A DNA stretch of 64,000 nucleotides from Reyranella sp. (GCA_052439685.1 JBQVQG010000028.1:541-64540); one strand, 5' to 3'; positions 985 to 58,901 are shown, numbered from the stretch's first letter. A program made the numbers and translations. Notes: a model not told the origin generated them from the letters alone.

Positions 985-1005
985 GACGGGCGGCGGCTAC
1001 CGTCT

Positions 1006-3297
1006 TCACAGACGATAGTTCAGCGTGATCATGCCCGTGGTGCCAGACCCCATCACCGCGCGGCCACCGTCGGACGCGATGACGCCGTCGTAGTAGACAG
1101 AGTTGAACAGGTTGTAGACGTTGAGCCGTACGTCGTAGGTCGGCTGCTTGTAGGCTGCCGTCAGGTCGACGCGGGCATAGGCCGGAACGACCACGGTATT
1201 GGTATTGTTGGCATAGCGCTGTCCGACATAGAAGACGCCGCCGCCGATCTCGTAGGTCTCCTTGAACGTGTAGGTCGTCCACAGGTTCGCAGAGTCTCTC
1301 GGCGTGTTGAGCGGCACCTTGCCCGTCGTGTTGCCGATGCCGTTCTGGTAGCTCAACCCCTGCAGGATGACGCCGTTCAGATAGGCGTAGCCACCGAACA
1401 CCTGCCATTCCGGCGTGATGCGGCCAGAGAAGCCGACGCGGCCACCACTCACCTGCACGTTTCCGGTCGGCGAGTAACTGCCATCCGGGTTCTGCGTCCT
1501 CGCATTGTTCTTGACGATCGAGAACACTGCGGCATTGAGAGAGAGATTGGCATTCAGCAACTCGTACTTGACGCCAGCCTCCACGCCCTTGTTGTTTTCT
1601 GGCGGCAGGTTCGATGCGCCGGTCGTCGAGGTGAGTTGCTCGAGGGAGGGATTGAACGAGGTGCTATACGAAACGTAGTACGATTGCGCCGGTGTCGGCT
1701 CGTAAATGACGCCGGCTCGGACGCTGAGGAAACTGTCAGCCTGGTAGAGAAACGGGACCTGGGTGTTTCCGGCCGTATTGGCGCTATTGACGGAGTTGCC
1801 GACCGTCGCCGAGTAGTAGTCCCAGCGCAGGCCGCCGACGACTTTCACCTCGGGAATGACCTGAACCGTGTCGTTGAAGTAGAAGCCGGCGCCCCAGGCC
1901 TGTGACGACGCGTAGTTGCCTGGCACGGACGCGACGTTGCCGGGCGTGTTGGCGCCGACCGTGTAGCCTGCCGGGGTGCAGCCGACGGACCCGGCCGGCA
2001 GAGCGATACCGTTGCATGTGCCGGTACGGCTGGATTGCTTGTTCGAGTAGGATTCGTAGTTCAGATCGACACCCATCAACAGCGTGTGGCCGACTGTTCC
2101 GGTGTTGAACTTGGCCAACACTTCGGTCTGGTTCTCCACCGTGATGTCATTGATGTTTCGGTCACGACTGAGCTGGCGGATCCACAGATTGCCGAGCGGC
2201 GCGGCACTATAGGGGATGTTGTTCGGGCCGCGCGGCGCCGCCACGAAACCACCGTTGGCGCCGAGCGTGCCGACGAATCCGCCCGAGGTTTCACGCACGG
2301 CCGTGTTCACCCAGACGAACTCCGTCTGGTTGCGCAGGTTCAGGTTCGGAGCGAATTTGTGCTCGATCAGGCTCTGCAGGGCGATGACGTCCTGCTCGGT
2401 ATAGTCGTCGTTGAAGCCCCAGGCGGTGTTGCGGGGCGCGTTGAGCGGATAGCCGTTCAGGTTCGGGACACCATAGTTCACCTGGTCCTTCTTATGCTGA
2501 AGGATCGCGCCCAGCGTGATCTCCGTGGGCGTGCCGATGCCGAGCTTCACGCTCGGCGCGAGACCGAAGTCGAGGACATTGGTCTGGTCGACCGTCGAGG
2601 CCTTGCCGACCTGGAACATCGCCGACACGCGGGCCGCGTTGGTCTCCTCGAAGGGCGTGTTGACGTCCGCCGTCGTGCGCACGAGGCCGTTGGTGGTCAC
2701 CTGGGCACTGAGTTCCGTCGCCTGCTTCAGGAACGGCTTCTTGGTCACCTGGTTGATGACGCCGCCCGTCGAGCCGCGGCCGAACAGCATCGAGGACGGG
2801 CCCATCAGCACCTCGACCTGCTCCAGCGCGAACACGTCGCGATAGTACTGGCCGCGGTCACGCATGCCATCGAGATAGATGTCGGTCCGGGCGGAGAAGC
2901 CGTTGATGTTGATGTTGGTGCCGATGGCACCGCCTTCCGCCGACCCGATCGTGACGCCCGGCGCGTTGCGGACGGCGTCTTCCAGCTTGGTTACGCCCTG
3001 CGACTGCATCAGCGCCCGGTTGATGACGACCACCGACTGCGGCACGTCCATCAGGTTGGCGGCGCCGAGGCGGTTGATGGAGCCTCGCGTGGTCTGGAAG
3101 TCCTCGCTGGGACGGCTGCCGGTGACCGTCACGGTCTGCATGGTCGCGGGCGCGGCAGATGGAGCCGCGGGCTGGTTTTCAGTCGAAGGCGTGGCTGGCG
3201 CAGGCGCTGGCGTCTGAGCGGGATCCTGCTGGGCCATGGCGCCCGGCGCCACGAGCAATCCAACCAACGCCGTCTTGACCGGTACGCGCTTTGCCAT
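1006..3297 (-). CDS. TonB-dependent siderophore receptor (Fiu/PiuA-like)
   Basis: Signal peptide, TVTVTG TonB box, plug motifs (DVPQSV.VI, GFSARTDIYLDG, EQVEVLMGPSSMLFGRGSTGG), C-terminal NVYNLFN..Y and terminal YRL. Confidence 0.93.
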   Translation of the reverse strand: MAKRVPVKTALVGLLVAPGAMAQQDPAQTPAPAPATPSTENQPAAPSAAPATMQTVTVTGSRPSEDFQTTRGSINRLGAANLMDVPQSVVVINRALMQSQGVTKLEDAVRNAPGVTIGSAEGGAIGTNININGFSARTDIYLDGMRDRGQYYRDVFALEQVEVLMGPSSMLFGRGSTGGVINQVTKKPFLKQATELSAQVTTNGLVRTTADVNTPFEETNAARVSAMFQVGKASTVDQTNVLDFGLAPSVKLGIGTPTEITLGAILQHKKDQVNYGVPNLNGYPLNAPRNTAWGFNDDYTEQDVIALQSLIEHKFAPNLNLRNQTEFVWVNTAVRETSGGFVGTLGANGGFVAAPRGPNNIPYSAAPLGNLWIRQLSRDRNINDITVENQTEVLAKFNTGTVGHTLLMGVDLNYESYSNKQSSRTGTCNGIALPAGSVGCTPAGYTVGANTPGNVASVPGNYASSQAWGAGFYFNDTVQVIPEVKVVGGLRWDYYSATVGNSVNSANTAGNTQVPFLYQADSFLSVRAGVIYEPTPAQSYYVSYSTSFNPSLEQLTSTTGASNLPPENNKGVEAGVKYELLNANLSLNAAVFSIVKNNARTQNPDGSYSPTGNVQVSGGRVGFSGRITPEWQVFGGYAYLNGVILQGLSYQNGIGNTTGKVPLNTPRDSANLWTTYTFKETYEIGGGVFYVGQRYANNTNTVVVPAYARVDLTAAYKQPTYDVRLNVYNLFNSVYYDGVIASDGGRAVMGSGTTGMITLNYRL

Positions 3298-3342
3298 TTC
3301 TTCTCCCCAAAAGGCTACTCGTCTCCCCCGAATTGAGGAGAA

Positions 3343-3389
3343 TGCGAGTTATTATCACGGAAAGAAAAAGGCATTGATAATGAATCGCA
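3343..3389. promoter_or_regulatory. Two Fur-type iron boxes upstream of the TonB receptor
   Basis: TGCGAGTTATTATCA (3343-3357) and TGATAATGAATCGCA (3375-3389) resemble the TGATAATnATTATCA consensus and are near reverse complements (13/15). Confidence 0.6.
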
Positions 3390-3448
3390 TGCACTGATGC
3401 GAACCAGCCCTGCAACCATGATACATATGGACTGCAACGGCTGGGAGA

Positions 3449-3524
3449 TGGCGCGCCCGGCTGGATTCGAACCAGCGGCCTACCGCTTAGAAGGCGGTTG
3501 CTCTATCCACTGAGCTACGGGCGC
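3449..3524 (-). tRNA. tRNA-Arg (anticodon TCT)
   Basis: GCGCCCGTAGCTCAGTGGATAGAGCAACCGCCTTCTAAGCGGTAGGCCGCTGGTTCGAATCCAGCCGGGCGCGCCA: cloverleaf, ACCGC/GCGGT anticodon stem, TTCGAA T-loop, encoded CCA. Confidence 0.97.
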
Positions 3525-3574
3525 TTGCCAATAGAATCGAGGTTTTCTGAGGATCGCTCGCCAACGGTACGGTC

Positions 3575-3599
3575 CTGTTGGGGACTGCTGTTGGGGACT
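3575..3599. repeat. Tandem 12-bp direct repeat CTGTTGGGGACT x2
   Basis: Exact copies at 3575-3586 and 3588-3599, 50 bp from the tRNA 5' end. Confidence 0.8.
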
Positions 3600-3934
3600 C
3601 GGTTCTCAATCTGCCCCTTCTCGCCGCCTCAGTAGTGATCGCCGGCAGGGCCGGAAATCTGCCCGCTGAGAGGCAGCGACTTTGTATGGCCCCATGCGCG
3701 CGCCGTCTAGCCGCGCCCGCACCCCGCTCATGTCTCCATGCGGACTCTTCGGCTGACGCCAGCAGGTAGCGGCAATACCCTGCCACTATATCCCGCGCGC
3801 AGCGCCGACGCGGACGTGATGCAGCGGTGGATCGCCGCCTCCGACATCGACGCGGCCTGCACAGGCGGGATACAGCGAGGCGCCGGCTCACGGCGGGGAG
3901 CGCCAACCTGGACCAAGACGAAGCTGGGCTGTTG

Positions 3935-4123
3935 ATGGTCGGCCCGTGGCGCCACCCGCCTGGCACGTTGTGCGCCCCGCGGACGATCCTCGGCCACCAA
4001 TACGTCGTGTGTCACGGCTGCCGTCGTTTCACCGCCATGGTCATCCCGGCAGGCATGGAAGATCGGAAGTATGAGCCCTGCCCTGTGTCTGCCGGCTCCG
4101 CGGCCAGCGTGGCGAACTCGTGA
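3935..4123 (+). CDS. Small Cys-containing hypothetical protein or remnant
   Basis: MVGPWRHPPGTLCAPRTILGHQYVVCHGCRRFT...; one CxxC motif; weak coding support. Confidence 0.3.
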   Translation: MVGPWRHPPGTLCAPRTILGHQYVVCHGCRRFTAMVIPAGMEDRKYEPCPVSAGSAASVANS

Positions 4124-4253
4124 CGGACGTGCCTCGCGGCATTAAGTCGGCTTCCGCCGGGACATCCAGGCAGGTGCTGCCGACTGAAAGTCCTACCGTA
4201 ATGGAAGCGAAAGCTCTTTCTGATATCGGGATACTGGATTAGATGCGGGGTCG

Positions 4254-4460
4254 ATGAAAAACGCCAAAGAGCTGATGGCGCGCCTCGGCTGCCGCCTTGA
4301 GCAGGACAGATTGACCGAAGCCGAATTTAGAAGCGCCGTGGCCGAGGTCTTGGCCGCCACGACGGACGGGCTGAGCGGCGCCAACTACCTGATGCTGTCG
4401 CAAGAGATCCGTGACCTCGAGCATGCTTGGCAGGATAGCTGCGAGCGGACTGCTAACTGA
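4254..4460 (+). CDS. Small helical hypothetical protein (paralog of 5820..6083)
   Basis: 68 aa; 19/48 ungapped identities to the product of 5820..6083. Confidence 0.7.
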   Translation: MKNAKELMARLGCRLEQDRLTEAEFRSAVAEVLAATTDGLSGANYLMLSQEIRDLEHAWQDSCERTAN

Positions 4461-4644
4461 GATTCTGTTTGCCGGGCTCGATCGGTTTGGCTCCACTCCA
4501 GGCCCCCACCGCGTCGTGCCAGTAATCGATCGCGGCTTTCAGATGCCCCAAGCGCTTGTCCGAGCTATCGACCCGAAACATTGCAAGCTCATCTATCACG
4601 CGCTGCCTGGCAGCGCGTACGTTCTCGGAATGGTGATCCGACAT
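4453..4644 (-). CDS. Small hypothetical protein
   Basis: 63-aa ORF convergent with 4254..4460, plausible composition. Confidence 0.4.
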   Translation of the reverse strand: MSDHHSENVRAARQRVIDELAMFRVDSSDKRLGHLKAAIDYWHDAVGAWSGAKPIEPGKQNLS

Positions 4645-5318
4645 GCATCCCCAACCAATTCACCCTCACTCTAAATTAGTATTAAAGGTGCCGTTTTTCA
4701 ACGCACGTGCCGAAATTTTAGGCAGTGACGGTGCTCAACAGATCACAGCAAAGTGCGGGTGAGACCTTGAGGATGCCTTCCGAGGTGCTGCCGCTGGCAG
4801 TGTTGGCACGTTCGTGACGCTGGCGTTGATCTTGTAGAAGGCTGGCGCCCGCCTCCCCCACCCATCGAGGAGATGTCGCACAATACCCGCCGGCTTCTGC
4901 TGCCCATTGCAGCCGTGCAGTACGTTGAGATAGCTGTGCCTGCCAAGCCAAGGATCCTCAGGGTCTGCATCGCCTCGGGCCGGGGTGATCCCCCCCCCCC
5001 GCCAGTTGCCCGATTTGGATCGAGCGGGAGACCATTCTTGAACTGCAGGCTGGAGGCCCGCCTAAATCCGGCCAACGCCGCCGCTGCGCAACGCCTTGGG
5101 AGCGCGGTGCTTATTCATGGATATTTAACATGGACGCAATCTCAAACCGAGCTTGGCTATTGAAGCCTGGCGTAGGTTTAGCGATTTGCGAATTGCCGGT
5201 CATGGGCGGCGCATAGCGAAAACTCACCGCATCGGTACAGAGCCGGCAGGCCCAGTGCCGAGAAGAGCTGGCCGGGTGTGCCCTTGAACACGCAAGCGGC
5301 GCAATTGCGAAAGGCCGC

Positions 5319-5669
5319 TCACTCCGACTCGGCTTGACGAAGCGCTTCTGCACGTTCGCAGGCTGCCGCAGCTTCCTTGTACTGCTTGAGGTCGAGATAG
5401 GCACGAGCGAGGTATTCATAATGGGGTGGCTTCTTGTATTCGCCGGTCGCCACAGTCGCGAAGAGATGGCGGGCCGCAGAGCGCTGCTTAATGGCAACGA
5501 GCGTGCGGACCGCCAGGCACGTCGCCTCAAGCCGAAGGCCCCGGTCGGTCTTCAAACCCGCGATCCGTTCGAAGATCCTCGTAGTATCGTCCCAATCGCT
5601 TCGGCTGAAGGATGCGCGCATCTCATCAATCAACTTCTTGCCGAGCTCGATCTCTTCCTCTGTGCTCAC
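5319..5669 (-). CDS. TPR-like repeat protein
   Basis: C-terminal HYEYLARAYLDLKQYKEAAAACERA is a TPR-like helix pair; GTG start at 5669 chosen (ORF open to 5801). Confidence 0.6.
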   Translation of the reverse strand: MSTEEEIELGKKLIDEMRASFSRSDWDDTTRIFERIAGLKTDRGLRLEATCLAVRTLVAIKQRSAARHLFATVATGEYKKPPHYEYLARAYLDLKQYKEAAAACERAEALRQAESE

Positions 5670-5819
5670 TACGATGTCCCCACATATTGCAAGCGTTGCA
5701 GCACGTCCGCTCAAGGCTTCGATGTCACTGTGGTCTAACTGCCTGCGGATTCCAAACAGTGGCGGCAGTGGCCCGAAACGGGGCGATGGCCTGGGCCGCA
5801 AAATTCCGAAGACTACGCA

Positions 5820-6083
5820 TCAACTGAGCGACCGCTTTAGGCTCTCCTTCCAATCGTGCTCTATCTCCCGAATCTTCTGGGCGATGAGCAGGCCATCGAT
5901 TGATCCTAAATCCCCAGGCGTTGCGGCAATGATATCCGAGACCGCCGCGATGAAGTCCTTTTCGCTCATACGGTCCTGCGCGATTCGGTCCTGTAACGCA
6001 TCCAGGCCAATGCTGATTTTACTCTTCAACGTCGCGGAGAGTTTTGGAATCGCAGGCGAACGTTTGTCGCTATTGCCTTTCAT
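5820..6083 (-). CDS. Small helical hypothetical protein (paralog of 4254..4460)
   Basis: ATG at 6083 preceded by GAGGAGGAG; shares the QDRxxExxF..AV...AAT...Q.IR..EH.W..S pattern. Confidence 0.75.
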   Translation of the reverse strand: MKGNSDKRSPAIPKLSATLKSKISIGLDALQDRIAQDRMSEKDFIAAVSDIIAATPGDLGSIDGLLIAQKIREIEHDWKESLKRSLS

Positions 6084-6527
6084 GACACTCCTCCTCTCGG
6101 CAGCCAAGGATGACACGAGAGAAAGGAGTCTTGGATAGATTCCGAAAAAACTGATGGGTGATCAGTGGGCTTATCTCTGCGTTCTTGCACTCGGACATCG
6201 AGCATTGATCGGCTCAGCCTGTGCTGCACGTATTGCTCTGCATCGACGATTGGCCAAGCTGCAAATGCGAACGAATCCCGGTCACGCATCGATGAATCGA
6301 TCACAAGCCATTGTTTCGAAATTCGGCAAACGTTGGAATGCGTGCAAATCTCTGCAACGAGCTGGTCGCCTCAGGAGGCGGCCAGGGTCACCGCAGCATG
6401 AACGCAAACATCCGCGCTTAGTTCGCTACAGGACAATAAGCTAAGACACTGTGGAGACGCTTTTTTATTCAAAGGTATGCAAACATGCGGGATGGTGAAG
6501 TGAGCGGATTACTCCTACTCTCTCAAT

Positions 6528-6806
6528 ATGGTCGACGAGCAGCGCAACAAGATTTTGGCGGTCCTTGCTGAGATAAACGAGTCCTTGGATAAGCGCCTTA
6601 AAGATGATGGTGCTTCTTCGCTTCCGCACGTAATCGTGGCGATTGGGCCCGATGGACACGCGCTTGTTCACGGCAATGTCGACCTTCCGCGACTCAAGAT
6701 GTTGGCCAAAGAGCTGACCGAGCTTGTCGATGCTTCGCTATCGATTCAAAAAAATAGATACGAGCGCGCCGATGCAGCTGCCGCTTCGAAAGCACCTATT
6801 CACTGA
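6528..6806 (+). CDS. Hypothetical protein
   Basis: 92-aa ORF with globular alpha/beta-like composition. Confidence 0.6.
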   Translation: MVDEQRNKILAVLAEINESLDKRLKDDGASSLPHVIVAIGPDGHALVHGNVDLPRLKMLAKELTELVDASLSIQKNRYERADAAAASKAPIH

Positions 6807-6999
6807 AAGCTGCTCGGTCCGGGATGTCGCGCGATTGCACGTTCGCTACTCCTGGGCATGACGCGTGTGCAATATATCTAGCCCAGCGCGCGCCCATCTA
6901 TTTCCGTTGATGCCGAACACCACGCCCATGCAGACGGCGCAGGCTGCTGTGAGCGTCGCCACCAGCAAGCCAAGAATAGGATGATCGCGATTTCCCTAC

Positions 7000-7260
7000 T
7001 CACCTTCCCGTCAACGGCTTGAACACGCAGCGCACCATCCCCCCGCGGATGCAGTGTCGTCAGTTGTAGTCGATCGACGGATCGAGCCCCTGCGCGACAC
7101 GCGCGCGCGGCATCAGGATGATGTCGCCGGCGCCGGTGGTGGTCGCGATCCCTGCCTGGGTCTCCCGCAACTTCGTGGCATGCTTGCGCCGGCAGTCGCA
7201 TGGGCCGCAACAGTGGACACCGTCGCGGTCGACGTAGCGCGGCTGTTCATGATCCAGGCG
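7000..7260 (-). pseudogene. Degenerate Cys-rich small protein gene
   Basis: Protein-like segments in different frames (WIMN / EQPRYVDRDGVHCCGPCDCRRKH...IDYN* / CIRGG / MVRCVFKPLTGR*) imply frameshifts and a stop. Confidence 0.35.
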
Positions 7261-7407
7261 GCGTCGCCGAGGCGACGCTTCAGCTGGGGTGCACGACCTC
7301 GACGGTCCGGAACTTCTGGACGCAACCAACTGCGCGGCCACCGCGTCGGCATGGGGGGGGGGGGCCCCCCCCCGCAACCCCCCGGGGCCACCTCTCTCGT
7401 CTGACGC

Positions 7408-7572
7408 AGGGCAATCGCATATGGAAATTTCCGTCGTCTCGACCGGAGCGCGCAGCGCGGAGTGGAGAGACCTTTTTTCCACCATTAGCCGTCAAATCGA
7501 GGAAAGAAGGTCTCTCCACTCCGCTGCGCTCCGGTCGAGACGACGGGGAGTTTGGGCAAATGCGATAGCCCT
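7408..7572. repeat. Palindromic intergenic repeat, family A copy 1
   Basis: CCGTCGTCTCGACCGGAGCG...GGAGTGGAGAGACCTT / AAGGTCTCTCCACTCC...CGCTCCGGTCGAGACGACGG, with outer IR AGGGCAATCGCAT / ATGCGATAGCCCT. Confidence 0.9.
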
Positions 7573-7593
7573 ACCGTATGGTGGGGCCGGTCT

Positions 7594-8412
7594 ATGAGCG
7601 CGGCCGAGAAGGCGCTTGCCGATCTCGAGGCGCAGGGGCGGGGCTTCAGCGCCCGCCGCCTGCGCCTGTGGCTCATCGCGGCACTCGTGCTGGCCTTCTA
7701 TGCCGTGTCGTGGGACCTCGCGGGCATCGATCTCGAGCGGCTGGCGACCGGCCTGCCCAGGCTCGGCCACTGGATCGCGTCGGCCTGGCCGCCCGACACG
7801 CGCGAGGTGCCGCTGTTCGCCTATCGCATCGCCGAGACCGTGGCGATGGCGGCGCTGGGCACGACGCTCGCGACCCTGCTCGCCATCCCGATGGCGATCC
7901 TCGCCAGCCGCAACATCACGCCCTGGCCGGCGCTCTACTATCCGGTGCGCTGGTTCCTGAACGCGCTGCGCGGCATCGACTCCTTCGTCTTCGCGCTGCT
8001 GTTCGTCGCGGCGGTCGGCCTCGGCCCCTTCGCCGGCGTGATCGGCATCGCGCTCCACACCTGGGGCAGTGCCGCCAAATTCTTTGCCGACCATATCGAG
8101 AATGCCAATCTCGGGCCGCTCGACGCCGTGCGCACGACCGGCGCCGGCCGCTTCACCGCGATCTGCTACGCGCTGGTGCCGGACATCCTGCCGGTGATGC
8201 TCTCGACCACGCTGTTCTGGTGGGAGTTCAACATCCGCGCCTCGACCGTGCTGGGCGTGGTCGGCGCCGGCGGTATCGGCCTCGAGCTGAAGAACAGTAT
8301 GGACCTGCTCGACTTCCCGCGGCTCTTCACCATCATCGCCATGATCCTGGTGGTCGTGACCGTGCTCGACCAGGTCTCGGCCTGGCTGCGCAAGCGGCTC
8401 ATCCGGTCATGA
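7594..8412 (+). CDS. phnE: PhnE/PtxC-like ABC transporter permease
   Basis: ETVAMAALGT, R.....LRGID.FVFALLFVAAVGLGPFAG, WEFNIRASTVLGVVGAGGIG motifs; start at ATG 7594. Confidence 0.9.
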   Translation: MSAAEKALADLEAQGRGFSARRLRLWLIAALVLAFYAVSWDLAGIDLERLATGLPRLGHWIASAWPPDTREVPLFAYRIAETVAMAALGTTLATLLAIPMAILASRNITPWPALYYPVRWFLNALRGIDSFVFALLFVAAVGLGPFAGVIGIALHTWGSAAKFFADHIENANLGPLDAVRTTGAGRFTAICYALVPDILPVMLSTTLFWWEFNIRASTVLGVVGAGGIGLELKNSMDLLDFPRLFTIIAMILVVVTVLDQVSAWLRKRLIRS

Positions 8413-9158
8413 GAGGCGCGCCGCGTCTCACCGCCGTCGGTCTCGCCAAGGCCTTCAAGGGCCATGCGGCGATCGACGACATCAGCTTCACCGTGCGCGA
8501 GGGCGAGTTCGTTGCCGTGCTGGGGCCCAGCGGCGCCGGCAAGACGACGCTCTTCCGCTGCCTGACCGGCCTGCTGGCGCCGGACAGGGGCGAGGTGAGG
8601 GTGGGAGACGACGACATCGCAACGCTGCATGGCCGCGCCCGCCGCCGGATCGCCGTGGTGTTCCAGCAGTTCAATCTCGTGAGCCGCCTCACGGCCCTCG
8701 ACAACGTGCTGGCCGGCCGTCTCGGTCATGTGCCGGCATGGCGCGGCGTGCTGCGCCGCTTCGACCGCGACGACCGGCTGCTGGCGCTGGAAAGCCTCGA
8801 TCGTGTCGGCCTGCTGCGCCAGGCGATGCAGCGCGCCGACACGCTCTCAGGCGGCCAGCAGCAGCGGGTGGCGATCGCGCGCGCCATGGCGCAGCGGCCG
8901 AGCCTGATCGTGGCCGACGAGCCGGTGGCCAGCCTCGATCCGGCGGCCGGTGCGGGCGTCCTCGAACTGCTGCAGCGCATCGCGCGCAGCGACGGCGTCG
9001 GCGTCGTCTGCTCGCTCCATCAGGTCCATCTGGCGCGGACCTATGCCGATCGCGTCGTTGGCCTGTCGCAGGGGCGCAAGGTGATCGATAGTCCGGTGGC
9101 CGAGTTCGACGAGGCCGCGTTCGGCCATCTCTACGGCAACAGCGAGACACCGACATGA
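8409..9158 (+). CDS. phnC: PhnC-like ABC transporter ATP-binding protein
   Basis: GPSGAGKTT Walker A, FQQFNLV.RLTALDNVL.GRLG, LSGGQQQRV, ADEPVASLDP; ATGA overlap with phnE. Confidence 0.92.
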   Translation: MRGAPRLTAVGLAKAFKGHAAIDDISFTVREGEFVAVLGPSGAGKTTLFRCLTGLLAPDRGEVRVGDDDIATLHGRARRRIAVVFQQFNLVSRLTALDNVLAGRLGHVPAWRGVLRRFDRDDRLLALESLDRVGLLRQAMQRADTLSGGQQQRVAIARAMAQRPSLIVADEPVASLDPAAGAGVLELLQRIARSDGVGVVCSLHQVHLARTYADRVVGLSQGRKVIDSPVAEFDEAAFGHLYGNSETPT

Positions 9159-10693
9159 AGCCGACCGAAACCCACGTTTTTCCCGACGGCATCACCGGCC
9201 CCGACGTCAGCTTCGACGGCGGCGACCTCGATTGCGGCAACGGGCTCCTGCTGCTGATCCGCAAGCACATCGACCCGATGGCGCGCGGCCAGCTGCTGGA
9301 AATCCTCTCGACGGAAATCTCGGTCGACGAGGACCTGCCGGCCTGGTGCCGCCTGACGTCCAACGAGCTGGTCTCGTTCCAGAAGGTCGGCAAGCAGCGC
9401 AGCTTCGTGATCGCCAAGGGCAAGCTCGCCGAACGTGGAGCCAAGGAAGAGCGCCACTGGAGTGGCGCGCTCCGCACGACGGACATTGCTGGAGCGCGCC
9501 ACTCCAGTGGCGCTCATGCTCGGACAGAACCCGTAGCCGCGCCGCCGGTTCCCGCGATGTCCGTCATGGGCATCGGCTCCTGGCCGCGCCCGCGCTGGAT
9601 GGTCGAGGCGATGCATTCCTACGTCGAGGGCAAGCTCGACGAGGCCGCGTTCCACGAGACCGCCAACGATGCCGTGCGCCTCGTCGTCGCCGCGCAGGAG
9701 CGGGCCGGGGTGGGCGTCCTCACCGATGGCGAGCAGCGCCGCGATTCCTATGCGAGCTTCGTGGCGACACGGCTCGACAATTGCCAGCTCATCCCGCTGA
9801 CCGACCTGCTGCCGCTGGTCGACGATCCCGAGAAGTTCGAGCGTGAGCTGCGGGCGCTCGACGTGCCGGCCGCCGACGTGCGCCACCCGGCGGTGCTGGG
9901 CCGCATCTCGCGCAGCCGTCCGCTGGTGCGACACGAGGCGGATTTCCTGCGCACGCTCTCGACCAGGCCGATCAAGGTCGCGCTGCCGGGTCCTTATCTG
10001 CTGACGCGCACCATGTGGATGGAGTGTCTGAACGAGCGCGCCTATGAGAGCCGCGAGGATCTGGCCCAGGACATCGTGACGGCGTTGCGCGCCGAGCTGA
10101 AGGACCTGCTCGATGCCGGTGTCTCGCTGGTCCAGTTCGACGAGCCGGTCCTGTCGGAAGTGGTGTTCAGCGGCGCCAAGAGCGGCCCCAGCTTCATGTG
10201 CGGGGCGCTGTCGGAATCGCGGGAGCCGGCGCATGAGCTGGCCTTCGCCCGCGACCTCGTGAACGCGGTGGTCGACGGAAGCCCGCGCGAGCGCATCGCG
10301 TTGCATGTCTGCCGCGGCAACTGGACCCCCGATGAATCGGTCGCGCTGGCCGGCGACTATCGCCCGCTGGTCGACACGCTCGCCTCCATGCGGGTCGGCG
10401 CCTATCTCCTGGAGATGTGCACCCCGCGCGCCGGCGAACTCGAGATCCTGAAGGCGCTGCCGCAGGACGCCCGCATCGGCGTCGGCGTGGTGAACCAGAA
10501 ATGCGCCCATGCCGAGCCGGTCGAGGAAGTCGGCGCCAAGATCGCCCGCGCCATCGACCTGTTCGGCAAGGACCGCCTGCTGTTCCATCCCGATTGCGGC
10601 TTTGCCACCTTCGCCGACAACCCGATCTGCAGCGCTACCGCCGCCGAGGAAAAGCTCAAGGTCATCGTCGAGGCGGTCGAGCGGTTGCGCTGA
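9155..10693 (+). CDS. TusA/SirA-like N-terminal domain fused to a cobalamin-independent methionine synthase II (MetE C-terminal-like) domain
   Basis: N-terminus FDGGDLDCGNGLLLLIRK...GQLLEILSTE.SV.EDLPAWCR; C-terminus GSWPRP, TDGEQRR, QFDEP, Zn ligands LHVCRGN and HPDCGF. Confidence 0.85.
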   Translation: MKPTETHVFPDGITGPDVSFDGGDLDCGNGLLLLIRKHIDPMARGQLLEILSTEISVDEDLPAWCRLTSNELVSFQKVGKQRSFVIAKGKLAERGAKEERHWSGALRTTDIAGARHSSGAHARTEPVAAPPVPAMSVMGIGSWPRPRWMVEAMHSYVEGKLDEAAFHETANDAVRLVVAAQERAGVGVLTDGEQRRDSYASFVATRLDNCQLIPLTDLLPLVDDPEKFERELRALDVPAADVRHPAVLGRISRSRPLVRHEADFLRTLSTRPIKVALPGPYLLTRTMWMECLNERAYESREDLAQDIVTALRAELKDLLDAGVSLVQFDEPVLSEVVFSGAKSGPSFMCGALSESREPAHELAFARDLVNAVVDGSPRERIALHVCRGNWTPDESVALAGDYRPLVDTLASMRVGAYLLEMCTPRAGELEILKALPQDARIGVGVVNQKCAHAEPVEEVGAKIARAIDLFGKDRLLFHPDCGFATFADNPICSATAAEEKLKVIVEAVERLR

Positions 10694-10772
10694 CCGCCGC
10701 GCTGCACCGGCAGCCTATACCGGTTTCGCCGATCGGGGAACGGGCGCCAGATGCACTCTCGATCGGGAGAGG

Positions 10773-11036
10773 GTGACATCGTGCACGTCGGTTCTTCGTG
10801 GCCGCAGGCGCGGCGGTCGGTCTTTTCGGAATTTCCACACCAGGGAGCAGCGCGAGATCGAGACCGGGCCGCTCACGGGGCGCGAGTTCGTCCTTGCCGC
10901 GGCGGGCGACCGCTTCGTGCGGGCGCGTCTCTACCTCACGCGGCAGGCGGTCTATTCGCAGATCGCGCAGGGGCGCCTGTCCCGGCTCGGCAGCCCGATG
11001 GTCACGCGGTTCTTCGACTCGCTGCGGTTCGGCTAG
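10773..11036 (+). CDS. Hypothetical or truncated gene fragment
   Basis: 3' part (GPLTGREFVLAAAGDRFVRARLYLTRQAVYS...FFDSLRFG) looks protein-like; no clear start or RBS. Confidence 0.35.
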   Translation: MTSCTSVLRGRRRGGRSFRNFHTREQREIETGPLTGREFVLAAAGDRFVRARLYLTRQAVYSQIAQGRLSRLGSPMVTRFFDSLRFG

Positions 11037-11093
11037 CGGGCGCGCCGGCGCCGGAGCCGTTCCGGCTGGCGCGACTTGTGATATAGCGGCGCC

Positions 11094-13052
11094 ATGTCGG
11101 CCCCTCCCACCAAGGCACCTGCGTCTGCTGGCAAACCTTTGGATGACGGCTCGTTCCGCCAGCTGGTCGAGGGCGTGCTCGACTATGCCGTGTACATGCT
11201 CGATCCCGCGGGCAACGTCGCGAGCTGGAACAGCGGCGCCGAACGCTTCAAGGGCTACACTGCGGCCGAGATCGTCGGCAGCCATTTCTCGCGCTTCTAC
11301 GCCGAAGAGGATCGCCGTTCCGGCCTGCCGGCGCGGGCCCTCGACATCGCGCTGCGCGAGGGCCGGTTCGAGAACGAGGGTTGGCGCGTGCGCAAGGACG
11401 GCACGCGCTTCTGGGCGCATGTGGTCATGGACCCGATCCGCGGTCCCGACGGCACGCTGCTGGGCTTCGCCAAGGTCACGCGCGACCTGACCCGGCGGCG
11501 CGCGGCGGCGGAGGAGCTGCGCCGCAGCCAGGAGGAGTTCCGCCTTCTGGTGCAGAGCGTCACCGACTACGGCATCTATATGCTCGATCCCGAGGGCAAC
11601 GTCGCGACCTGGAATGCCGGGGCCCAGCGGATCAAGGGCTATGCGCCGGAAGAGATCGTCGGCCAGCACTTCTCGCGTTTCTATACCGAGGAGGACCGTG
11701 CCGCCGGCGCGCCGCAGCGGGCGCTCGCCACCGCACTGCACGAGGGCCGCTTCGAGAACGAGGCCTGGCGCGTGCGCAAGGACGGCACGCGCTTCTGGGC
11801 CAGCATCGTCATCGATCCGGTTCGCGAGCCCGACGGCACGCTGCGCGGCTTCGCCAAGGTCACGCGCGACATCACGGAGCGCCGCGAGGTGCAGCTCGAA
11901 CTCGAGCGCGCGCGCGAGGCGCTGTTCCAGTCGCAGAAGATGGAGGCGATCGGCCAGCTCACCGGCGGCGTCGCGCACGACTTCAACAACCTACTGACCG
12001 CCGTCATCGGCAGCCTCGAACTGGTGCGCAAGCGCCTGCCGGCCGACGACCGGAACCTGCTGCTGATCGACAATGCCATGCAGGCGGCGCGCCGCGGCGC
12101 CACCCTGACGCAGCGCATGCTGGCCTTCGCGCGGCGGCAGGAACTCGATCCGGAACTGGCCTCGGTCGCTGCGTTGGTGACCGGCATGACGACGCTGTTC
12201 GACCACACGCTCGGCCCCTCGATCGTGCTCGACGTCGACTGCCCGGCGTCGCTTCCGCCGGTAAGGGTCGACGTCAACCAGCTCGAAATGGCGCTGCTCA
12301 ACCTCGTGGTCAATGCGCGCGATGCCATGCCGCGCGGCGGCGTCATCGCCATCTCGGCGCGCGAGGCCACGGCGGACCCGGCCTCGACGTTCCCGCTGCC
12401 GGCCGGCCGCTACGTGCGCCTCTCGGTCCGCGACCAGGGCCACGGCATGGATGCCATCACCCTGGCGCGCGCGACCGAACCGTTCTTCACGACCAAGGGC
12501 GTGGGCAAGGGGACCGGCCTCGGCCTCTCGATGGTGCACGGACTCGCCGAACAGCTGGGCGGCCGCCTGCAACTCGAGAGCGTCCCGGGCATCGGAACGA
12601 CTGCGTCGCTGTGGATCCCGATGGCCGCCGGCGCCGATGTTCTGTCTCAGCACAGCGAGCCCGCGCCCGCGGTCGAGGCGACGTCGCTGTACATCCTCGC
12701 GGTCGACGACGACGCGCTGATCCTCGTGAACACCGCCGCCATGCTGGAGGATCTCGGTCACGAGGTCGTCACCGCCTATTCCGGCCGCGAGGCGCTGGCA
12801 GCGCTCGCGGGCATGGAACGGGTCGATCTCGTCGTCACCGATCAGGCGATGCCCGGCATGACCGGCACCGAACTGGTCGCCGCCATCCGGCGCGAGCGCC
12901 CCGACCTGCCGGTCCTGCTCGCGACCGGCTATGCCGAACTGCCCGACGGCGGGATGTCCGACATCCCGCGCCTCAACAAGCCCTTCCTGCAGGCCCATCT
13001 CGATCACGCCATCGCCGAGGTGATGCGGGGCCGATCCAAGTCGTCCGGCTGA
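11094..13052 (+). CDS. Hybrid sensor histidine kinase PAS-PAS-HisKA-HATPase-REC
   Basis: Two PAS/PAC repeats (DYA.YMLDP.G.V.SWN.GA...R.RKDGTRFWA), GQLTGGVAHDFNN H-box, PFFTTK..GKGTGLGL, VDDD receiver. Confidence 0.95.
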   Translation: MSAPPTKAPASAGKPLDDGSFRQLVEGVLDYAVYMLDPAGNVASWNSGAERFKGYTAAEIVGSHFSRFYAEEDRRSGLPARALDIALREGRFENEGWRVRKDGTRFWAHVVMDPIRGPDGTLLGFAKVTRDLTRRRAAAEELRRSQEEFRLLVQSVTDYGIYMLDPEGNVATWNAGAQRIKGYAPEEIVGQHFSRFYTEEDRAAGAPQRALATALHEGRFENEAWRVRKDGTRFWASIVIDPVREPDGTLRGFAKVTRDITERREVQLELERAREALFQSQKMEAIGQLTGGVAHDFNNLLTAVIGSLELVRKRLPADDRNLLLIDNAMQAARRGATLTQRMLAFARRQELDPELASVAALVTGMTTLFDHTLGPSIVLDVDCPASLPPVRVDVNQLEMALLNLVVNARDAMPRGGVIAISAREATADPASTFPLPAGRYVRLSVRDQGHGMDAITLARATEPFFTTKGVGKGTGLGLSMVHGLAEQLGGRLQLESVPGIGTTASLWIPMAAGADVLSQHSEPAPAVEATSLYILAVDDDALILVNTAAMLEDLGHEVVTAYSGREALAALAGMERVDLVVTDQAMPGMTGTELVAAIRRERPDLPVLLATGYAELPDGGMSDIPRLNKPFLQAHLDHAIAEVMRGRSKSSG

Positions 13053-13058
13053 CGAGGA

Positions 13059-13709
13059 TCAGGGGCTGCTGCGCCCCACCTTCGGTTCGGTTCCGGCGAG
13101 CAGGCGCACGATGTTGGCGCGGTGGAGTGCGAGCACGTAGAGGCCGCCGGCGATGACCAGCAGGCGATAGGCCAGCGGCTCGGGCAGCAGGCAGACGAGA
13201 ATCGCGGCCGTCACCGCCGCCAGCATCGAGGCGAGCGACACGATACGCACGAGTGCCAGCACGGCGAGAAAGACGAAGGCCGCGCCCACGCCGACCGGCC
13301 ACGACAAAGCGAGCAGCACGCCGAGGCCGGTCGCCGCCGACTTGCCGCCGGTGAAGCCCAGCCAGATCGAGCGGCTGTGGCCCAGCAGCACGGCAAGCCC
13401 GCACAGGCAGACCGCCCAGGGCATTCCGTCCGGCGATGCGCCCAGCCAGGGATAGAGCCAGCGCGCGAGCAGGATCGCCGCCATGCCCTTCAGCACGTCG
13501 ACAACCAGCACCACCAGGGCCGGTCCCTTGCCCAGCGTGCGCAGTACGTTGGTCGCGCCGGTCGACCCGGAACCGTGCTGACGGATGTCGATGCCGCGCA
13601 GCAGCCGGCCCGCCAGATACCCCGTGGGCGTCGAGCCCAGGAGATAGGCGGCAGCGACGCCGGCGATCCCGAAGAGCGAAATGAAAAACGGCGATGTCGC
13701 GTCGTGCAG
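13059..13709 (-). CDS. plsY: Glycerol-3-phosphate 1-O-acyltransferase PlsY
   Basis: YLLGS.PTG, GSGSTGATNVLR, DVLKG, GH, GGKSAAT, HRANI.RL..GTEP; no in-frame ATG/GTG before the conserved N-terminus, so CTG at 13709 is proposed. Confidence 0.9.
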   Translation of the reverse strand: MHDATSPFFISLFGIAGVAAAYLLGSTPTGYLAGRLLRGIDIRQHGSGSTGATNVLRTLGKGPALVVLVVDVLKGMAAILLARWLYPWLGASPDGMPWAVCLCGLAVLLGHSRSIWLGFTGGKSAATGLGVLLALSWPVGVGAAFVFLAVLALVRIVSLASMLAAVTAAILVCLLPEPLAYRLLVIAGGLYVLALHRANIVRLLAGTEPKVGRSSP

Positions 13710-13855
13710 CGGAAGGCTCCGTCAAATCCGCGCCAACTGTAGCGCAGAAAGTCGTGACGGCGCGTCCTCTGCTTGCTGGCTTCACTCGTCCTGAATAGTG
13801 TGCCGGTCGCAAGGTCAAGGGGCGGCAAAGCCCTGGAGATCAGGGAGGAATTGTA

Positions 13856-14845
13856 ATGCGTACACCGACTCGTCGTGGGCTCATCGTTACGGGCGCAAGC
13901 GCTCTCGCGGCGCCGGCTCTTTTCACCAGTTCGTCGCGGGCGCAGGGCGCGTTCCCGAACAAGCCGATCCGGATCGTCGTACCCTATCCGGCGGGCGGAC
14001 AGACCGACGGCATCGCGCGCGTCTATGGCGAGTATCTCGGCCGCAAGCTCGGCACCTCCGTGGTGGTCGAGAACAAGGGCGGCGCCGGTGGCACGATCGG
14101 CGTGGCCGAGGTCAAGCGCGCGCCGCCCGACGGCTACACCATCCTCTGCACCATTTCCTCGTCGCTGATCCAGAACCGGGTCACGGTGAAGGACCTGCCG
14201 TATGATCCGGAGAAGGACTTCACCTATCTCGCCATGACGACCAGCCTCGGCGGCCCCGTCGTGGCGGCCGAGAAGACCGGCGCGACCAACCTCAAGCAGT
14301 TCCTCGAATACGCCAAGAAGGTCGACAAGTTGAACTTCGGCGCCTACGGGCCGGGTTCGACGCCGCAGATGCTGATCGAGACGATGGCGCGCCAATACGG
14401 GTTCAAGGTCGAGGTCGTGCAGTATCGCGGCGAGGCCGCGATGTTCGCCGACGTGGCGGCCCAGGCGCTCGACGGCGCGGCGGGCAGTCCGGCCGGTGCG
14501 GCCTCGGTGATCGGTTCCGGCAAGGGCAGGGCCATCGCCATGATGGGCGACCGTCTGCCGGCCTTTCCCGGTGTCGAGACGATGGTGGAGCAGGGCGCCG
14601 TCGGCGGCTTCTACGAGACGCGCGCCTTCGCTGTCTTCGCCGTCCCGGCGGCGACGCCCAAGGACGTCGTAAAGAAGCTCTCCGACACGCTGTTCGAAGC
14701 CGGCACCGACGAGAAGGTGAAGGCGCTGATGGCCAATTACCTGATCGTCGGTCCCCTCGATTTCGAAGCGACCAACAAGGTCTTCCAGCGAGACACCCGG
14801 ATCATGCTCCAGGTGATGAAGGAGATCGGGATCAAGGCCGAGTAG
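13856..14845 (+). CDS. Bug/TctC tripartite tricarboxylate transporter substrate-binding protein
   Basis: Tat-like RRGL leader, FPNKPIRIVVPYPAGG.TD..AR, VENKGGAGG.IG, DGYTI, Y.GEA. Confidence 0.92.
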   Translation: MRTPTRRGLIVTGASALAAPALFTSSSRAQGAFPNKPIRIVVPYPAGGQTDGIARVYGEYLGRKLGTSVVVENKGGAGGTIGVAEVKRAPPDGYTILCTISSSLIQNRVTVKDLPYDPEKDFTYLAMTTSLGGPVVAAEKTGATNLKQFLEYAKKVDKLNFGAYGPGSTPQMLIETMARQYGFKVEVVQYRGEAAMFADVAAQALDGAAGSPAGAASVIGSGKGRAIAMMGDRLPAFPGVETMVEQGAVGGFYETRAFAVFAVPAATPKDVVKKLSDTLFEAGTDEKVKALMANYLIVGPLDFEATNKVFQRDTRIMLQVMKEIGIKAE

Positions 14846-14952
14846 TCGGCCGCGCAAGGCGCGGCCGGGGGAGCGTAGGAGCTTGCCCACGGCAAGCTCC
14901 GGGAGCGACGTATGCCGGTGCAACAGGTCTCTTGAACAGCGAGGAACCAACC

Positions 14953-15456
14953 ATGTCCTTCACGGTAACCAGCGACAGCTTCAAGGAAGGCGCCACCCTC
15001 GGGATGGAGCACATCCTCTCGGCCGAGTACGGCTTCGGCTGCGGCGGCGGCAACAAGTCGCCGCACCTGCGCTGGTCCGGCGCGCCCGAGGGCACCAAGA
15101 GCTTCGCCGTGCGCTGCTACGATCCCGACGCACCGACCGGCTCGGGATTCTGGCACTGGGTGGTGGTCAACATCCCCGCCGGCACGACCGAGCTGGCGCT
15201 CGACGCCGGCAACCCGAAGGCCGGCCTTCTCCCAAAGGGCGCGCTGCAGACGCGCACCGACTTCGGCGCCCCGGGCTATGGCGGTCCGTGCCCGCCGCCG
15301 GGCCACGGCCCGCACCGCTACGTCTTCACGGTGTTCGCGGTGAAGGAAGAGGCCCTGCCGGTGACTGCCGACACGTCGGCCGCGATCGTCGGCTTCCAGC
15401 TGCATTTCAACACGCTGGCCAAGGCCGCGCTGACCGGCACCTTCGAAAGAACGTAG
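14953..15456 (+). CDS. YbhB/YbcL family (PEBP/Raf kinase inhibitor-like) protein
   Basis: N.SP.L.WS..PEGTKSFA...YDPDAPTGSGFWHWVV.NIP, YGGPCPPPGHGPHRY.FTVFA. Confidence 0.93.
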   Translation: MSFTVTSDSFKEGATLGMEHILSAEYGFGCGGGNKSPHLRWSGAPEGTKSFAVRCYDPDAPTGSGFWHWVVVNIPAGTTELALDAGNPKAGLLPKGALQTRTDFGAPGYGGPCPPPGHGPHRYVFTVFAVKEEALPVTADTSAAIVGFQLHFNTLAKAALTGTFERT

Positions 15457-15607
15457 CCAGCGCCGAGCGCGACCTTGCGAGAGAGCGTCAGGACATTGCC
15501 TTCGGCACTATCCGGGAGCGACGTCTGGCTCTCTCGTCCGCAGGGACCTTCGACCCCCATCGCCCTCGTAGGACTCGCTCGGTCGTACAGGACATGCATT
15601 CGTGTCC

Positions 15608-16422
15608 TTACAGTATGCCTTCTTGCGCGGCCTGATGAACCGTCCTCACGATCGGCCAGAAGCCAAGGCGCCGCGCGAGCGATCCATCGACATGGAGGGA
15701 CCAGGGATTTCGCATGTCCTCGGCCGACGGTTCCATCCTCTGGCCCACGAGTCCCACCAATTCATAGACCGTGGTCGGCGCTTCATCGGATATGTTGACG
15801 ATCCGACCATCGAAGGCGCCTGCCAGCGCGAGCTTTATCGCCGTTGCAATATCGCGATGGTGTATCGTGCTCATCCGATGGGCGGGATGGAAGCCGGCGG
15901 CGACCAGGTGCTTTGGCAGCATCTCCAGGTGACCGTCGCCGTCGCCATAAACGAACGGGAACCGTGAGATCGACCAGTTCAAGCCACTCTCGCGCAGCAG
16001 TTTCTCGGCTGCGACCTTGCTGGCGGGATAGGCATGTTGCGGCTCGACACGATCGGTCTCCCGGGCGGGCTGGGTCGAGTTCTTGTCGTAGACATTCGAC
16101 GTGCTCGCCATGATGAAGCGAGCGCCCGGCGCGTCGGCTTGCACGGCGGCGATCAAATTGCGGGTGCCCTCCAGGTTGCTCCTCCAGATCAAATCGATAT
16201 CCGGGCTGCGAAAGACGGCGGCCAGATGCACGACCGCCGAAACACCCCGAACAGCCTCCGAGAGCGTCGAACGGTCGAGAATATCGCCCGTCACGGCCGT
16301 TGCTCCCGGGGGGAGGGCTTCCCTGTCCGCAGCAGTAGCCGGCAAGCAAAGCCTGCTTCCACCAGCCGCGGAACAAGGCGCTCGCCAACGAGGCCTGTCG
16401 CTCCCGTCATCAGGATCGTCAT
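15608..16422 (-). pseudogene. NAD-dependent epimerase/dehydratase (extended SDR), frameshifted near 16310-16325
   Basis: ATG 16422 gives MTILMTGATGLVGERL... (Rossmann motif) that stops after about 43 aa; the rest (VVHLAAVF, Y.ASK) is in another frame; the shift lies in a G/C homopolymer run and could be a sequencing error. Confidence 0.8.
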
Positions 16423-16426
16423 GGGC

Positions 16427-16876
16427 TCATACTTTTCCCGAGAGGGTCTGTAGCCGCTCGGTCGCCAATCGAAGGACGCGGATCGTCGTGGCCAGATCGG
16501 TCTCGTCGATGCCGTCGAAAGCAGCCTGGTGAATGAACGAGAGGTCCGGGAGTTGGCGCCACAGGGCCTTGCCTGAACGTGTCAGGCTCAGAAGACGCTG
16601 GCGCTGGTCTTCTTCGTTCGAGGTCTGCTGGACCAGCCCTTTGCGAACGAGCGTGGCGATGATCCCGCTCAAAGTTGCCCGTTCGAGCTCAAGCGCATGT
16701 CCGAGATCGCGCTGCACCGCCGGACCGGCGTTTGCCAGGTGCCAGAGGACGTACCACTGCGTCGAACCCACATCGTATGGACGGAGGGTCGCGTCCATGA
16801 GGGCCCGTCCCGCAAAATAGCATCGCTTTGTCCATGCGCCGACGGTCAGATGTTCGGCGTCTCGTTCGTCCCGCAT
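16427..16876 (-). CDS. MarR family transcriptional regulator
   Basis: TQWYVLWHL...QRDL...LELERATLSGIIATLVRKGLV....D.RQRLLSLT..G winged-helix pattern. Confidence 0.9.
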   Translation of the reverse strand: MRDERDAEHLTVGAWTKRCYFAGRALMDATLRPYDVGSTQWYVLWHLANAGPAVQRDLGHALELERATLSGIIATLVRKGLVQQTSNEEDQRQRLLSLTRSGKALWRQLPDLSFIHQAAFDGIDETDLATTIRVLRLATERLQTLSGKV

Positions 16877-16893
16877 GCCGGGGCCCTTCCATC

Positions 16894-16930
16894 CGTTTGC
16901 TACCTTGCGGATATCGCAAGGTAGCAAACG
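16894..16930. promoter_or_regulatory. Perfect 16-bp inverted repeat, likely MarR operator
   Basis: CGTTTGCTACCTTGCG-GATAT-CGCAAGGTAGCAAACG, ending 18 bp upstream of the marR ATG. Confidence 0.65.
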
Positions 16931-16961
16931 AATAGTCAAGCGTGTTCGCCTGGGTCCTGGG

Positions 16962-57400: not shown

Positions 57401-57530
57401 TTCCGTCGTCTCGACCGGAGCCTCGCGCAGCGAGGCGGAGTGGAGAGACCTTCTCTCCACGATTTGGCGGCTCGTGGTCGAGCGAAGGTCTCTCCGCTCC
57501 GCGCTGCGCGCTCCGGTCGAGACGACGGAA
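57401..57530. repeat. Palindromic repeat, family A copy 2
   Basis: 20-bp perfect arms TTCCGTCGTCTCGACCGGAG / CTCCGGTCGAGACGACGGAA between convergent stop codons. Confidence 0.9.
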
Positions 57531-57532
57531 AA

Positions 57533-58866: not shown

Positions 58867-58901
58867 GGGCGGTGGATGGAGCGTGCCATCCTGCGACGCA
58901 C

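Follow-up and report, generated by a model that had tools for sequence, protein, structure and literature searches.

We examined a 64,000-nucleotide (nt) stretch of DNA from Reyranella sp. (GCA_052439685.1, JBQVQG010000028.1:541-64540; hereafter the window), in which three co-directional genes on the plus strand encode an ATP-binding cassette (ABC) permease, an ABC ATPase, and a fusion of a TusA-like domain to a MetE-like zinc enzyme. Listing the open reading frames (ORFs) and reading the sequence directly, we found the genes at 7594-8412 (272 amino acids, aa), 8409-9158 (249 aa) and 9155-10693 (512 aa), with start and stop codons overlapping as ATGA at 8409-8412 and 9155-9158, just as the original prediction for this DNA had described. 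The first product is a phnE-type permease with a BPD_transp_1 domain (TIGR01097, 269.9 bits vs a cut-off of 216.7) that shares 98% amino acid identity with the PhnE of a second locus, L009, and the second is a phnC-type ATPase (TIGR02315, 278.8 bits vs 266.1; ABC_tran, 120 bits). Both pass the NCBIfam equivalog cut-offs for a phosphonate-type transporter.

The third product, the 512-aa fusion, was divided by Pfam matches, alignment and structure modelling into a TusA-like domain (aa 1-95; 9155-9439), a flexible Ala/Pro-rich linker and a single-barrel MetE-like zinc enzyme, whose MetE C-terminal-type (β/α)8 barrel (aa 133-512; 9551-10693) was delimited by alignment to 3RPD and 1T7L. The TusA-like domain is a borderline match to Pfam PF01206 (residues 32-88, 28.7 bits vs a gathering score of 28.6), matches the solved TusA/YhhP structures 1DCJ and 3LVJ with E = 3e-4, and does not reach the TusA equivalog NF001423 (25.7 vs a cut-off of 78). 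It has two cysteines, Cys27 (codon 9233-9235) in DLDCGNG and Cys65 in AWCRLT, and reads D-C-G-N-G where canonical TusA proteins have Cys-Pro-x-Pro. In an AlphaFold2 (AF2) model of the fusion, with a predicted local distance difference test (pLDDT) score of 74.8 and a predicted template modelling score (pTM) of 0.69, the domain is folded as beta-alpha-beta-alpha-beta-beta (strands 18-21, 47-52, 71-78 and 81-87; helices 29-39 and 57-67), Cys27 sits just before helix 1 (29-39), and linker residues 97-120 score below 50. We aligned the window fusion with 17 homologues (alignment A1, the source of the term invariant for residues of the fusion) and found Cys27, Cys65, Ser142, Glu193, Asp329, Cys349, His384, Cys386, Glu420 and Cys481 to be invariant. 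The predicted cysteine at the TusA position, within a DCG motif, is therefore real and conserved.

The barrel of the fusion scores 105.2 bits against Pfam PF01717 (Meth_synt_2; gathering cut-off 21), and Foldseek matched it to MetE (1XR2, E = 4e-21) as well as to two proteins with a single barrel, 3RPD (TMt 0.77) and 1YPX (TMt 0.79). In E. coli MetE numbering, the zinc ligands are His641, Cys643, Glu665 and Cys726, and homocysteine is bound by Ser433, Glu484 and Asp599, which are Ser22, Glu73 and Asp188 of 3RPD (Price et al. 2021, PMC7857596). HMMER alignment to 3RPD and 1T7L places H384-x-C386 (codons 10304-10306 and 10310-10312), E420 (10412-10414) and C481 (10595-10597) of the fusion at the zinc ligands, so the intact HxC...C ligand set of the original prediction is borne out, and S142 (in IGSWP), E193 (DGEQ) and D329 (FDEP) at the homocysteine site. 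Because all seven residues are invariant, the barrel is predicted to bind zinc together with a homocysteine-type ligand; on these alignments it very likely binds zinc and a homocysteine- or methionine-type amino acid. The invariant Cys349 (codon 10199-10201) lies in a family-specific loop, SFMCGALSES, carried by an insertion of about 20 residues relative to the core methionine synthase MesD. The AF2 model is uncertain in this loop (low pLDDT at residues 333-354), in the loop with Cys27 and in those that follow the individual zinc ligands. The methionine-synthase equivalogs (NF003317, NF006589, TIGR01371 and others) were not reached, the best score being 165.6 bits vs 406. In addition, the window genome encodes a canonical two-barrel MetE (514 bits) and two more MetE-like paralogues elsewhere; hence, the fusion is not the housekeeping methionine synthase.

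The original prediction had also described a transporter without a binding protein, with no phnD gene nearby; this proved to be an artefact. Synteny with close Reyranella relatives ends just upstream of phnE, where those relatives have genes for three proteins: one TusA-like (98 aa), one DsrE-like (120 aa) and one binding protein of the PhnD family (297 aa). The same three genes are intact and single-copy in the window genome on a 4110-bp contig (C64), which ends 57 nt after phnD. Upstream of phnE, the window contains a G12C9 run (7353-7373) that is unique in the 6.08-Mb assembly and is its sole G-run/C-run junction, and in the complete genome of a relative the counterpart of window 1-3524 lies 1.4 Mb off, in inverted orientation. 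As an independent check of the junction we used a second assembly of the same strain, GCA_052439495.1. The whole of C64 and window 7374-17320 align to its 29.3-kb contig JBQVQC010000040.1 (L093) with 100.000% identity, overlapping there by 4 nt; this contig reads uninterrupted as tusA2-dsrE-phnD-(274-nt spacer)-phnE-phnC-fusion, with phnD at L093 9463-10356 (C64 3160-4053). Window 1-7353 is 100% identical to another contig of that assembly, JBQVQC010000015.1 (119.7 kb), which continues into a C-rich run and other genes. Since the two flanks match separate contigs of GCA_052439495.1 with full identity and both contigs continue otherwise beyond the join, the window contig is a chimera in which two unrelated genome regions are artificially joined at homopolymer tracts. 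Hence, the window holds half of the system: the operon has six genes, of which the three in the window form the 3' half, phnD lies directly upstream of phnE in GCA_052439495.1 and on C64, and the missing binding protein is an assembly artefact. Findings that rely on adjacency across 7353-7373 are invalid, and because of the artificial join the TonB-dependent receptor, the tRNA and the low-GC island to the left of 7353 are not neighbours of the operon. A real inversion as the break was rejected, as C64 ends where the true window sequence starts and both flanks continue otherwise in the other assembly; recombination at a miniature inverted-repeat transposable element (MITE) was rejected as well, as the MITE belongs to the true spacer. 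The window genome also has two further phnCDE systems, which are complete and unrelated to this cassette.

The fusion is widely conserved: we found it in at least 571 species-level genome loci of Alpha- and Betaproteobacteria, with 65-94% identity across the two classes (70-95% among the best 120 protein clusters). Its sequence space is compact, with only 176 representatives at 50% identity and E <= 1e-30, most of which are fragments. Conservation had been named beforehand as the point on which the original prediction would turn, together with a phnEC linkage that is not unique to this genome, and the linkage recurs in about 30 of the 80 loci that we kept for counting architectures. The conserved neighbours in these 80 loci are only tusA2, dsrE, phnD, phnE, phnC and two genes without Pfam families that we call Xmem and X520. 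The arrangement tusA2-dsrE-Xmem-X520-fusion occurs in 24 loci, tusA2-dsrE-phnDEC-fusion in 20, tusA2-dsrE-fusion without inserts in 19, and both inserts together in 5. The ABC importer is present in about 30/80 loci (~40%) and X520 likewise in about 30/80. Of the 27 untruncated loci with phnC, 25 also have phnD; in the remaining two, L017 and L052, nothing upstream could be matched to a cassette gene at the thresholds used. The constant core is tusA2-dsrE-fusion, into which the uptake modules are optionally inserted between dsrE and the fusion gene.

The partner proteins of the core are small and have cysteine motifs: TusA2 has about 82-98 aa and a GCGP motif, again departing from Cys-Pro-x-Pro, and the 120-aa DsrE-like protein has a CSPC motif. 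Of the alternative insert, Xmem is a membrane protein of ~170 aa with CxxC in a helix, and X520 is a secreted, all-beta protein of ~520 aa with a C-terminal anchor and an invariant GCPTGH motif (examples of the pair: L024 5798-7944, L021 3196-5322 and L015 5885-8004). X520 gave no sequence match in Pfam, NCBIfam or the PDB, and the sole resemblance of its AF2 model (pLDDT 81) was weak, to an S-layer DUF1608-like fold (TM 0.2-0.3). Among the conserved neighbours in the 80 loci there were no tRNA-thiolation, Dsr or sHdr genes near the cassette.

The binding protein that the chimeric contig had hidden is closest to HtxB of Pseudomonas stutzeri (PDB 5ME4; 261 bits, 50% identity), and it scores far lower against PtxB, PhnD, AioX and ArrX. 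It does not reach TIGR04553, Haft's putative selenate binding-protein family (70.7 vs a cut-off of 250). We found the HtxB pocket kept at W52 (the cap), W68, P71-W72-G73, Y97, T129, S130, N205 and the R178/D206 salt bridge, and changed at N128S, F158H and M176F; across 27 cassette binding proteins the pocket residues vary little or not at all. The cassette binding proteins, from L009 (5398-6291) and 26 further loci, also share an invariant and apparently unpaired Cys109 at the position of a Thr in HtxB; binding proteins rarely have a free cysteine in the periplasm, and this one is reminiscent of the cysteine with which AioX binds arsenite. A soil HtxB-like subgroup with N128S, F158H and M176Y/F and ~50% identity to HtxB has been described, with a pocket modelled as larger than that of HtxB (88 vs 68 cubic angstroms), and a protonated mono-anion can hydrogen-bond Asp206 of HtxB (Adams et al. 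2019, PMC6629693). Judged by its residues, the cassette binding protein fits exactly into this published subgroup.

We then compared the cassette with selenium genes. As the cassette was rare in an even sample of the class, occurring in 1 of 301 genomes (the window's own), we tested the carrier genomes directly. We found selD above its curated cut-off in 49/50 cassette genomes and in 58/301 genomes of the class sample (57/300 without the window genome); for 49/50 vs 57/300, Fisher's test gives p = 9e-29, with kinship ignored. Within a one-family sample, selD was present in 9/9 cassette genomes vs 73/151 overall (48%; hypergeometric p about 0.001-0.002, kinship again ignored). Hardly any genome has the cassette without selD, and selA was found in 44/51 cassette genomes, the window genome among them. 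In L026, selD directly follows the fusion gene, and in L077 selA does. No other locus of the 80 has selD or selA beside the cassette. Of the neighbours that the original prediction had proposed to look for, a phnD-like gene is present in nearly all untruncated phnC loci, and selD adjoins the cassette in L026. The sole SelD of the window genome (C25 21638-24518) has 741 aa, with an N-terminal half like a pyridine-nucleotide-disulfide oxidoreductase ahead of SelD, and its gene is followed by a 131-aa gene that is OsmC-like by eye; most other cassette genomes have an ordinary SelD of ~350 aa.

Two unfused relatives bear on Cys349. The called proteins of L094 and L095 (44% and 35% identity) end exactly before the Cys349 column, where an in-frame TGA stands (TFM-TGA-ATL in L094, SFY-TGA-GVL in L095), and the frame after the TGA is open and homologous (HICRGNW and HVCRGN). 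The TGA at this column probably encodes selenocysteine (Sec) in both relatives. The gene that precedes the unfused relative in L094 (1-219) encodes a C-terminus unlike TusA or DsrE, and other cassette variants with different partners may exist.

Four known systems resemble parts of the cassette. MesD and the core methionine synthases (3RPD, PMC7857596) share the single barrel without a folate-binding barrel and the same zinc-site and Ser/Glu/Asp residues. MesD is the best match in sequence and fold among single-barrel proteins, with only about 22% identity to the fusion; unlike MesD, the fusion has an N-terminal TusA-like domain on a linker and a loop of ~20 residues with an invariant cysteine, its operon partners are TusA and DsrE proteins, and it occurs in selD-positive genomes. 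The MesD partner family DUF1852 (MesX) was found neither among the called genes of L093 nor in Pfam scans of L009, the rest of the genome not having been searched. YedF joins a SirA/TusA-like domain to a DsrE-like domain with CGxC and co-occurs with SelD, and YedF/FdhU is reported to regulate the biogenesis of the selenium-dependent formate dehydrogenase in Campylobacter (PMC5322559); DsrE-like UxxC selenoproteins have also been catalogued (PMC13188914). Like YedF with YedE/FdhT, a candidate selenium-trafficking system, the cassette combines TusA and DsrE cysteine modules with CxxC, an uptake system and co-occurrence with SelD. Unlike YedF, its TusA and DsrE proteins are separate genes, its transporter is the ABC importer or X520 rather than YedE, and a MetE-like enzyme is attached; neither TusA2 nor DsrE matched TIGR03527 (YedF) at E <= 0.01, and the likeness is functional only. 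With HtxB of the HtxBCDE transporter, the binding protein shares the capping Trp, the oxygen-binding loop and the R178/D206 salt bridge; it differs in having Cys109 and in the setting of its gene, which has TusA-, DsrE- and MetE-like operon partners and not htxA or ptxD as neighbours. The cassette shares with the TusA/DsrEFH relay small alpha/beta carriers with a cysteine at the N-terminus of helix 1 and a DsrE-fold partner, and differs from it by CGNG and GCGP in place of CPxP, by the second invariant cysteine in AWCRLT, and by a DsrE with CSPC. Our literature search found no paper treating the cassette, and Price et al. 2021 does not mention TusA or DsrE (PMC7857596).

The explanation we favour, tentatively, is that the operon is a system for the acquisition and relay of selenium, less likely sulfur, at a homocysteine-type zinc site. 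Selenium is favoured because of the co-occurrence with selD and because of the TGA at the Cys349 column in relatives. The uptake module, whether the HtxB-like ABC importer or Xmem/X520, would import a small pyramidal oxyanion, and it would be dispensable since such oxyanions would also leak in through other carriers. The preferred ion would be hydrogen selenite, as it is isosteric with the phosphite predicted for the HtxB-like subgroup; hydrogen selenite is a protonated mono-anion at neutral pH, as its pKa values show. Reduction of the oxyanion, and its carriage as a selenotrisulfide or perselenide, would then fall to the cysteines of DsrE (CSPC), of TusA2 and of the tethered TusA domain, and the flexible linker would let Cys27 swing to the Zn/Cys349 site, which would hold a homocysteine-type ligand. 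There, selenium might be transferred to or from homocysteine, undergo controlled reduction or be handed over towards SelD. The sulfur- or selenium-transfer pathway of the original prediction, with the carrier cysteine as a putative donor or acceptor of the thiol, fits in its transfer part, leaning towards selenium, while its transporter-fed scheme has to be redrawn for a system that has an HtxB-like binding protein, tusA2 and a dsrE-like gene.

Several results weigh against this selenium explanation. The authors who defined the HtxB-like subgroup predicted that it binds phosphite, not selenite (PMC6629693). The class baseline for selD covers Alphaproteobacteria only, while the cassette set includes Betaproteobacteria, and the co-occurrence is not phylogenetically corrected; with relatives that are probable selenoproteins, descent and not function might explain why the Cys forms follow Sec-using lineages. 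Genes of the sel set adjoin the cassette in only 2/80 loci. Folding of the 62 nt after the two TGA codons gave no significant hairpin of a selenocysteine insertion sequence (z = 0.7 and 0.1), both contigs being short, and the exact motif SFM-TGA-GALSES was not found in the JGI metagenomes, which gave one chance match only. The 8 loci searched have no riboswitch or other cis-regulatory RNA within or ahead of the cassette (the RNA matches there were two RNase P genes downstream of the fusion gene and, in L027, a sul1 RNA ~7.5 kb downstream). Finally, the cassette encodes no methyl or alkyl donor, though the homocysteine site and the zinc thiolate point to alkyl transfer.

A bolder form of the selenium explanation, which we consider unlikely, is that the operon is a dedicated selenium-assimilation machine, with the first selenite-specific ABC binding protein and a new class of MetE-fold enzyme. 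The selenium lone pair of selenite would lie under the capping Trp, with the protonated oxygen bonded to Asp206, and the Zn/Cys(Sec) site would work on a protein-bound perselenide delivered by the tethered TusA domain, forming or processing a selenohomocysteine-type product or feeding SelD. In a still bolder variant, imported phosphite and carrier-bound Se(0) would yield selenophosphate without ATP.

The same proteins could serve sulfur, TusA and DsrE being classical sulfur-relay families. A TusA/DsrE persulfide would deliver or remove sulfane sulfur at the zinc site, for example by making or unloading homocysteine persulfide, and the importer would bring a sulfur oxyanion such as sulfite, which is isosteric with phosphite; the retained homocysteine site of the barrel agrees with this. 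Yet sulfur metabolism is universal and the cassette is almost confined to selD-positive genomes, one of its cysteines is probably selenocysteine in relatives, and no genes for sulfur assimilation or sulfur oxidation are conserved nearby in the 80 loci, which together make a pure sulfur relay rather unlikely. The TGA at the Cys349 column can also be read as the mark of a redox enzyme, as Sec/Cys pairs typically are and as the known DsrE-like UxxC selenoproteins illustrate. Cys/Sec349 would then act on an oxidised methionine- or homocysteine-type amino acid held in the retained site, among active-site loops that are flexible in the model, and TusA2, DsrE and the TusA domain would form a thiol-disulfide reductant chain. 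Such a repair role leaves unexplained the dedicated oxyanion-type importer, the secreted X520 and the restriction of the Cys forms to selD genomes, and we regard it as improbable.

Reduced phosphorus enters through the importer itself. With 50% identity to HtxB, the capping Trp of the P-H...pi contact and other pocket residues kept, and PhnE and PhnC above the phosphonate-transporter equivalog cut-offs, the HtxB-like transporter could import phosphite or hypophosphite, which the cassette would use or oxidise through cysteine chemistry, or beside which it would be a mere neighbour. The ABC importer is missing from over half of the cassettes, however, so its substrate is not an obligatory co-substrate; the 80 loci share no conserved gene resembling ptxD or htxA, and the window genome has the two other complete phnCDE systems. 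Translational coupling and recurrence in two proteobacterial classes oppose a chance neighbourhood. A reduced-phosphorus function is accordingly also quite improbable in our view. We give least credence, and rate as very unlikely, a fifth folate-independent methionine synthase in which the methyl group would be supplied or activated by the tethered TusA and its partners instead of by MesX or corrinoid proteins. All zinc and homocysteine residues of the core methionine synthases are kept in the fusion, and its closest solved relative is MesD (3RPD). Against this, the genome already has MetE and two MetE-like paralogues, the fusion falls far below every NCBIfam equivalog cut-off (e.g. 165.6 vs 406), cysteine thioethers donate methyl groups poorly, the 8 loci searched have no SAM-II or cobalamin riboswitch ahead of the cassette, and the restriction to selD genomes is left unexplained.

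Other features of the window lie within or around the operon. The linker-coding region of the fusion contains an in-frame inverted repeat (9441-9523, plus strand) with 33-nt arms that are 91% complementary. The linker peptide there, AKEERHWSGALRTTDIAGARHSSGAH, is unlike that of close homologues, and the repeat has the appearance of a short palindromic element that a disordered linker can tolerate. An RNA search of the window returned only a tRNA and hairpin-type chance matches, including a weak hairpin-type Rfam match at this repeat. Positions 7374-7593 (plus strand) are the 3' part of the true phnD-phnE spacer, identical to L093 10410-10629, and contain a 187-nt palindromic repeat (7391-7577) that resembles a MITE or a repetitive extragenic palindrome (REP), has dozens of copies in the genome, and as RNA folds at -132.6 kcal/mol (z = -12.1). 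Copies of the family measure ~130-190 nt and recur in the window at about 57403-57534 and 58895-59062. Several copies lie at contig ends, and MITE/REP-like copies probably fragment the assembly. In the same spacer of another Reyranella locus (L010, about 5110-6440) there is a transposase-like gene of ~1.3 kb on the opposite strand, IS110-like by eye; the phnD-phnE spacer seems to be an insertion hotspot.

Downstream of the fusion gene, 11094-13052 encodes a hybrid histidine kinase/response regulator with two duplicated PAS domains (11153-11507 vs 11537-11884, ~80% DNA identity). This kinase follows the fusion gene in all close Reyranella relatives, and unrelated hybrid kinases precede the cassette in Pseudolabrys loci. 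To the left of the artificial join, a stretch of lower GC content (59-61%) with only short ORFs extends from a tRNA gene (3452-3524, minus strand) up to 7352. The ORFs between 3530 and 7350 matched no Pfam families, and two of them encode paralogous small proteins (4254-4460, plus strand; 5820-6116, minus strand). Window 3452-7352 looks like a tRNA-linked island unrelated to the operon.

To our knowledge, little is understood of the ways in which bacteria take up trace selenium and hand it safely to selenophosphate synthetase. The wiring of the cassette questions the published assumption that the HtxB-like subgroup is a phosphite system, and the HtxB-like importer, present in about 40% of loci, offers a simple experimental entry to the substrate of the cassette, ligand assays on binding proteins being easy. 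The cassette matters because it is highly conserved, almost confined to selD genomes, and places a probable Sec/Cys site in a methionine-synthase fold.

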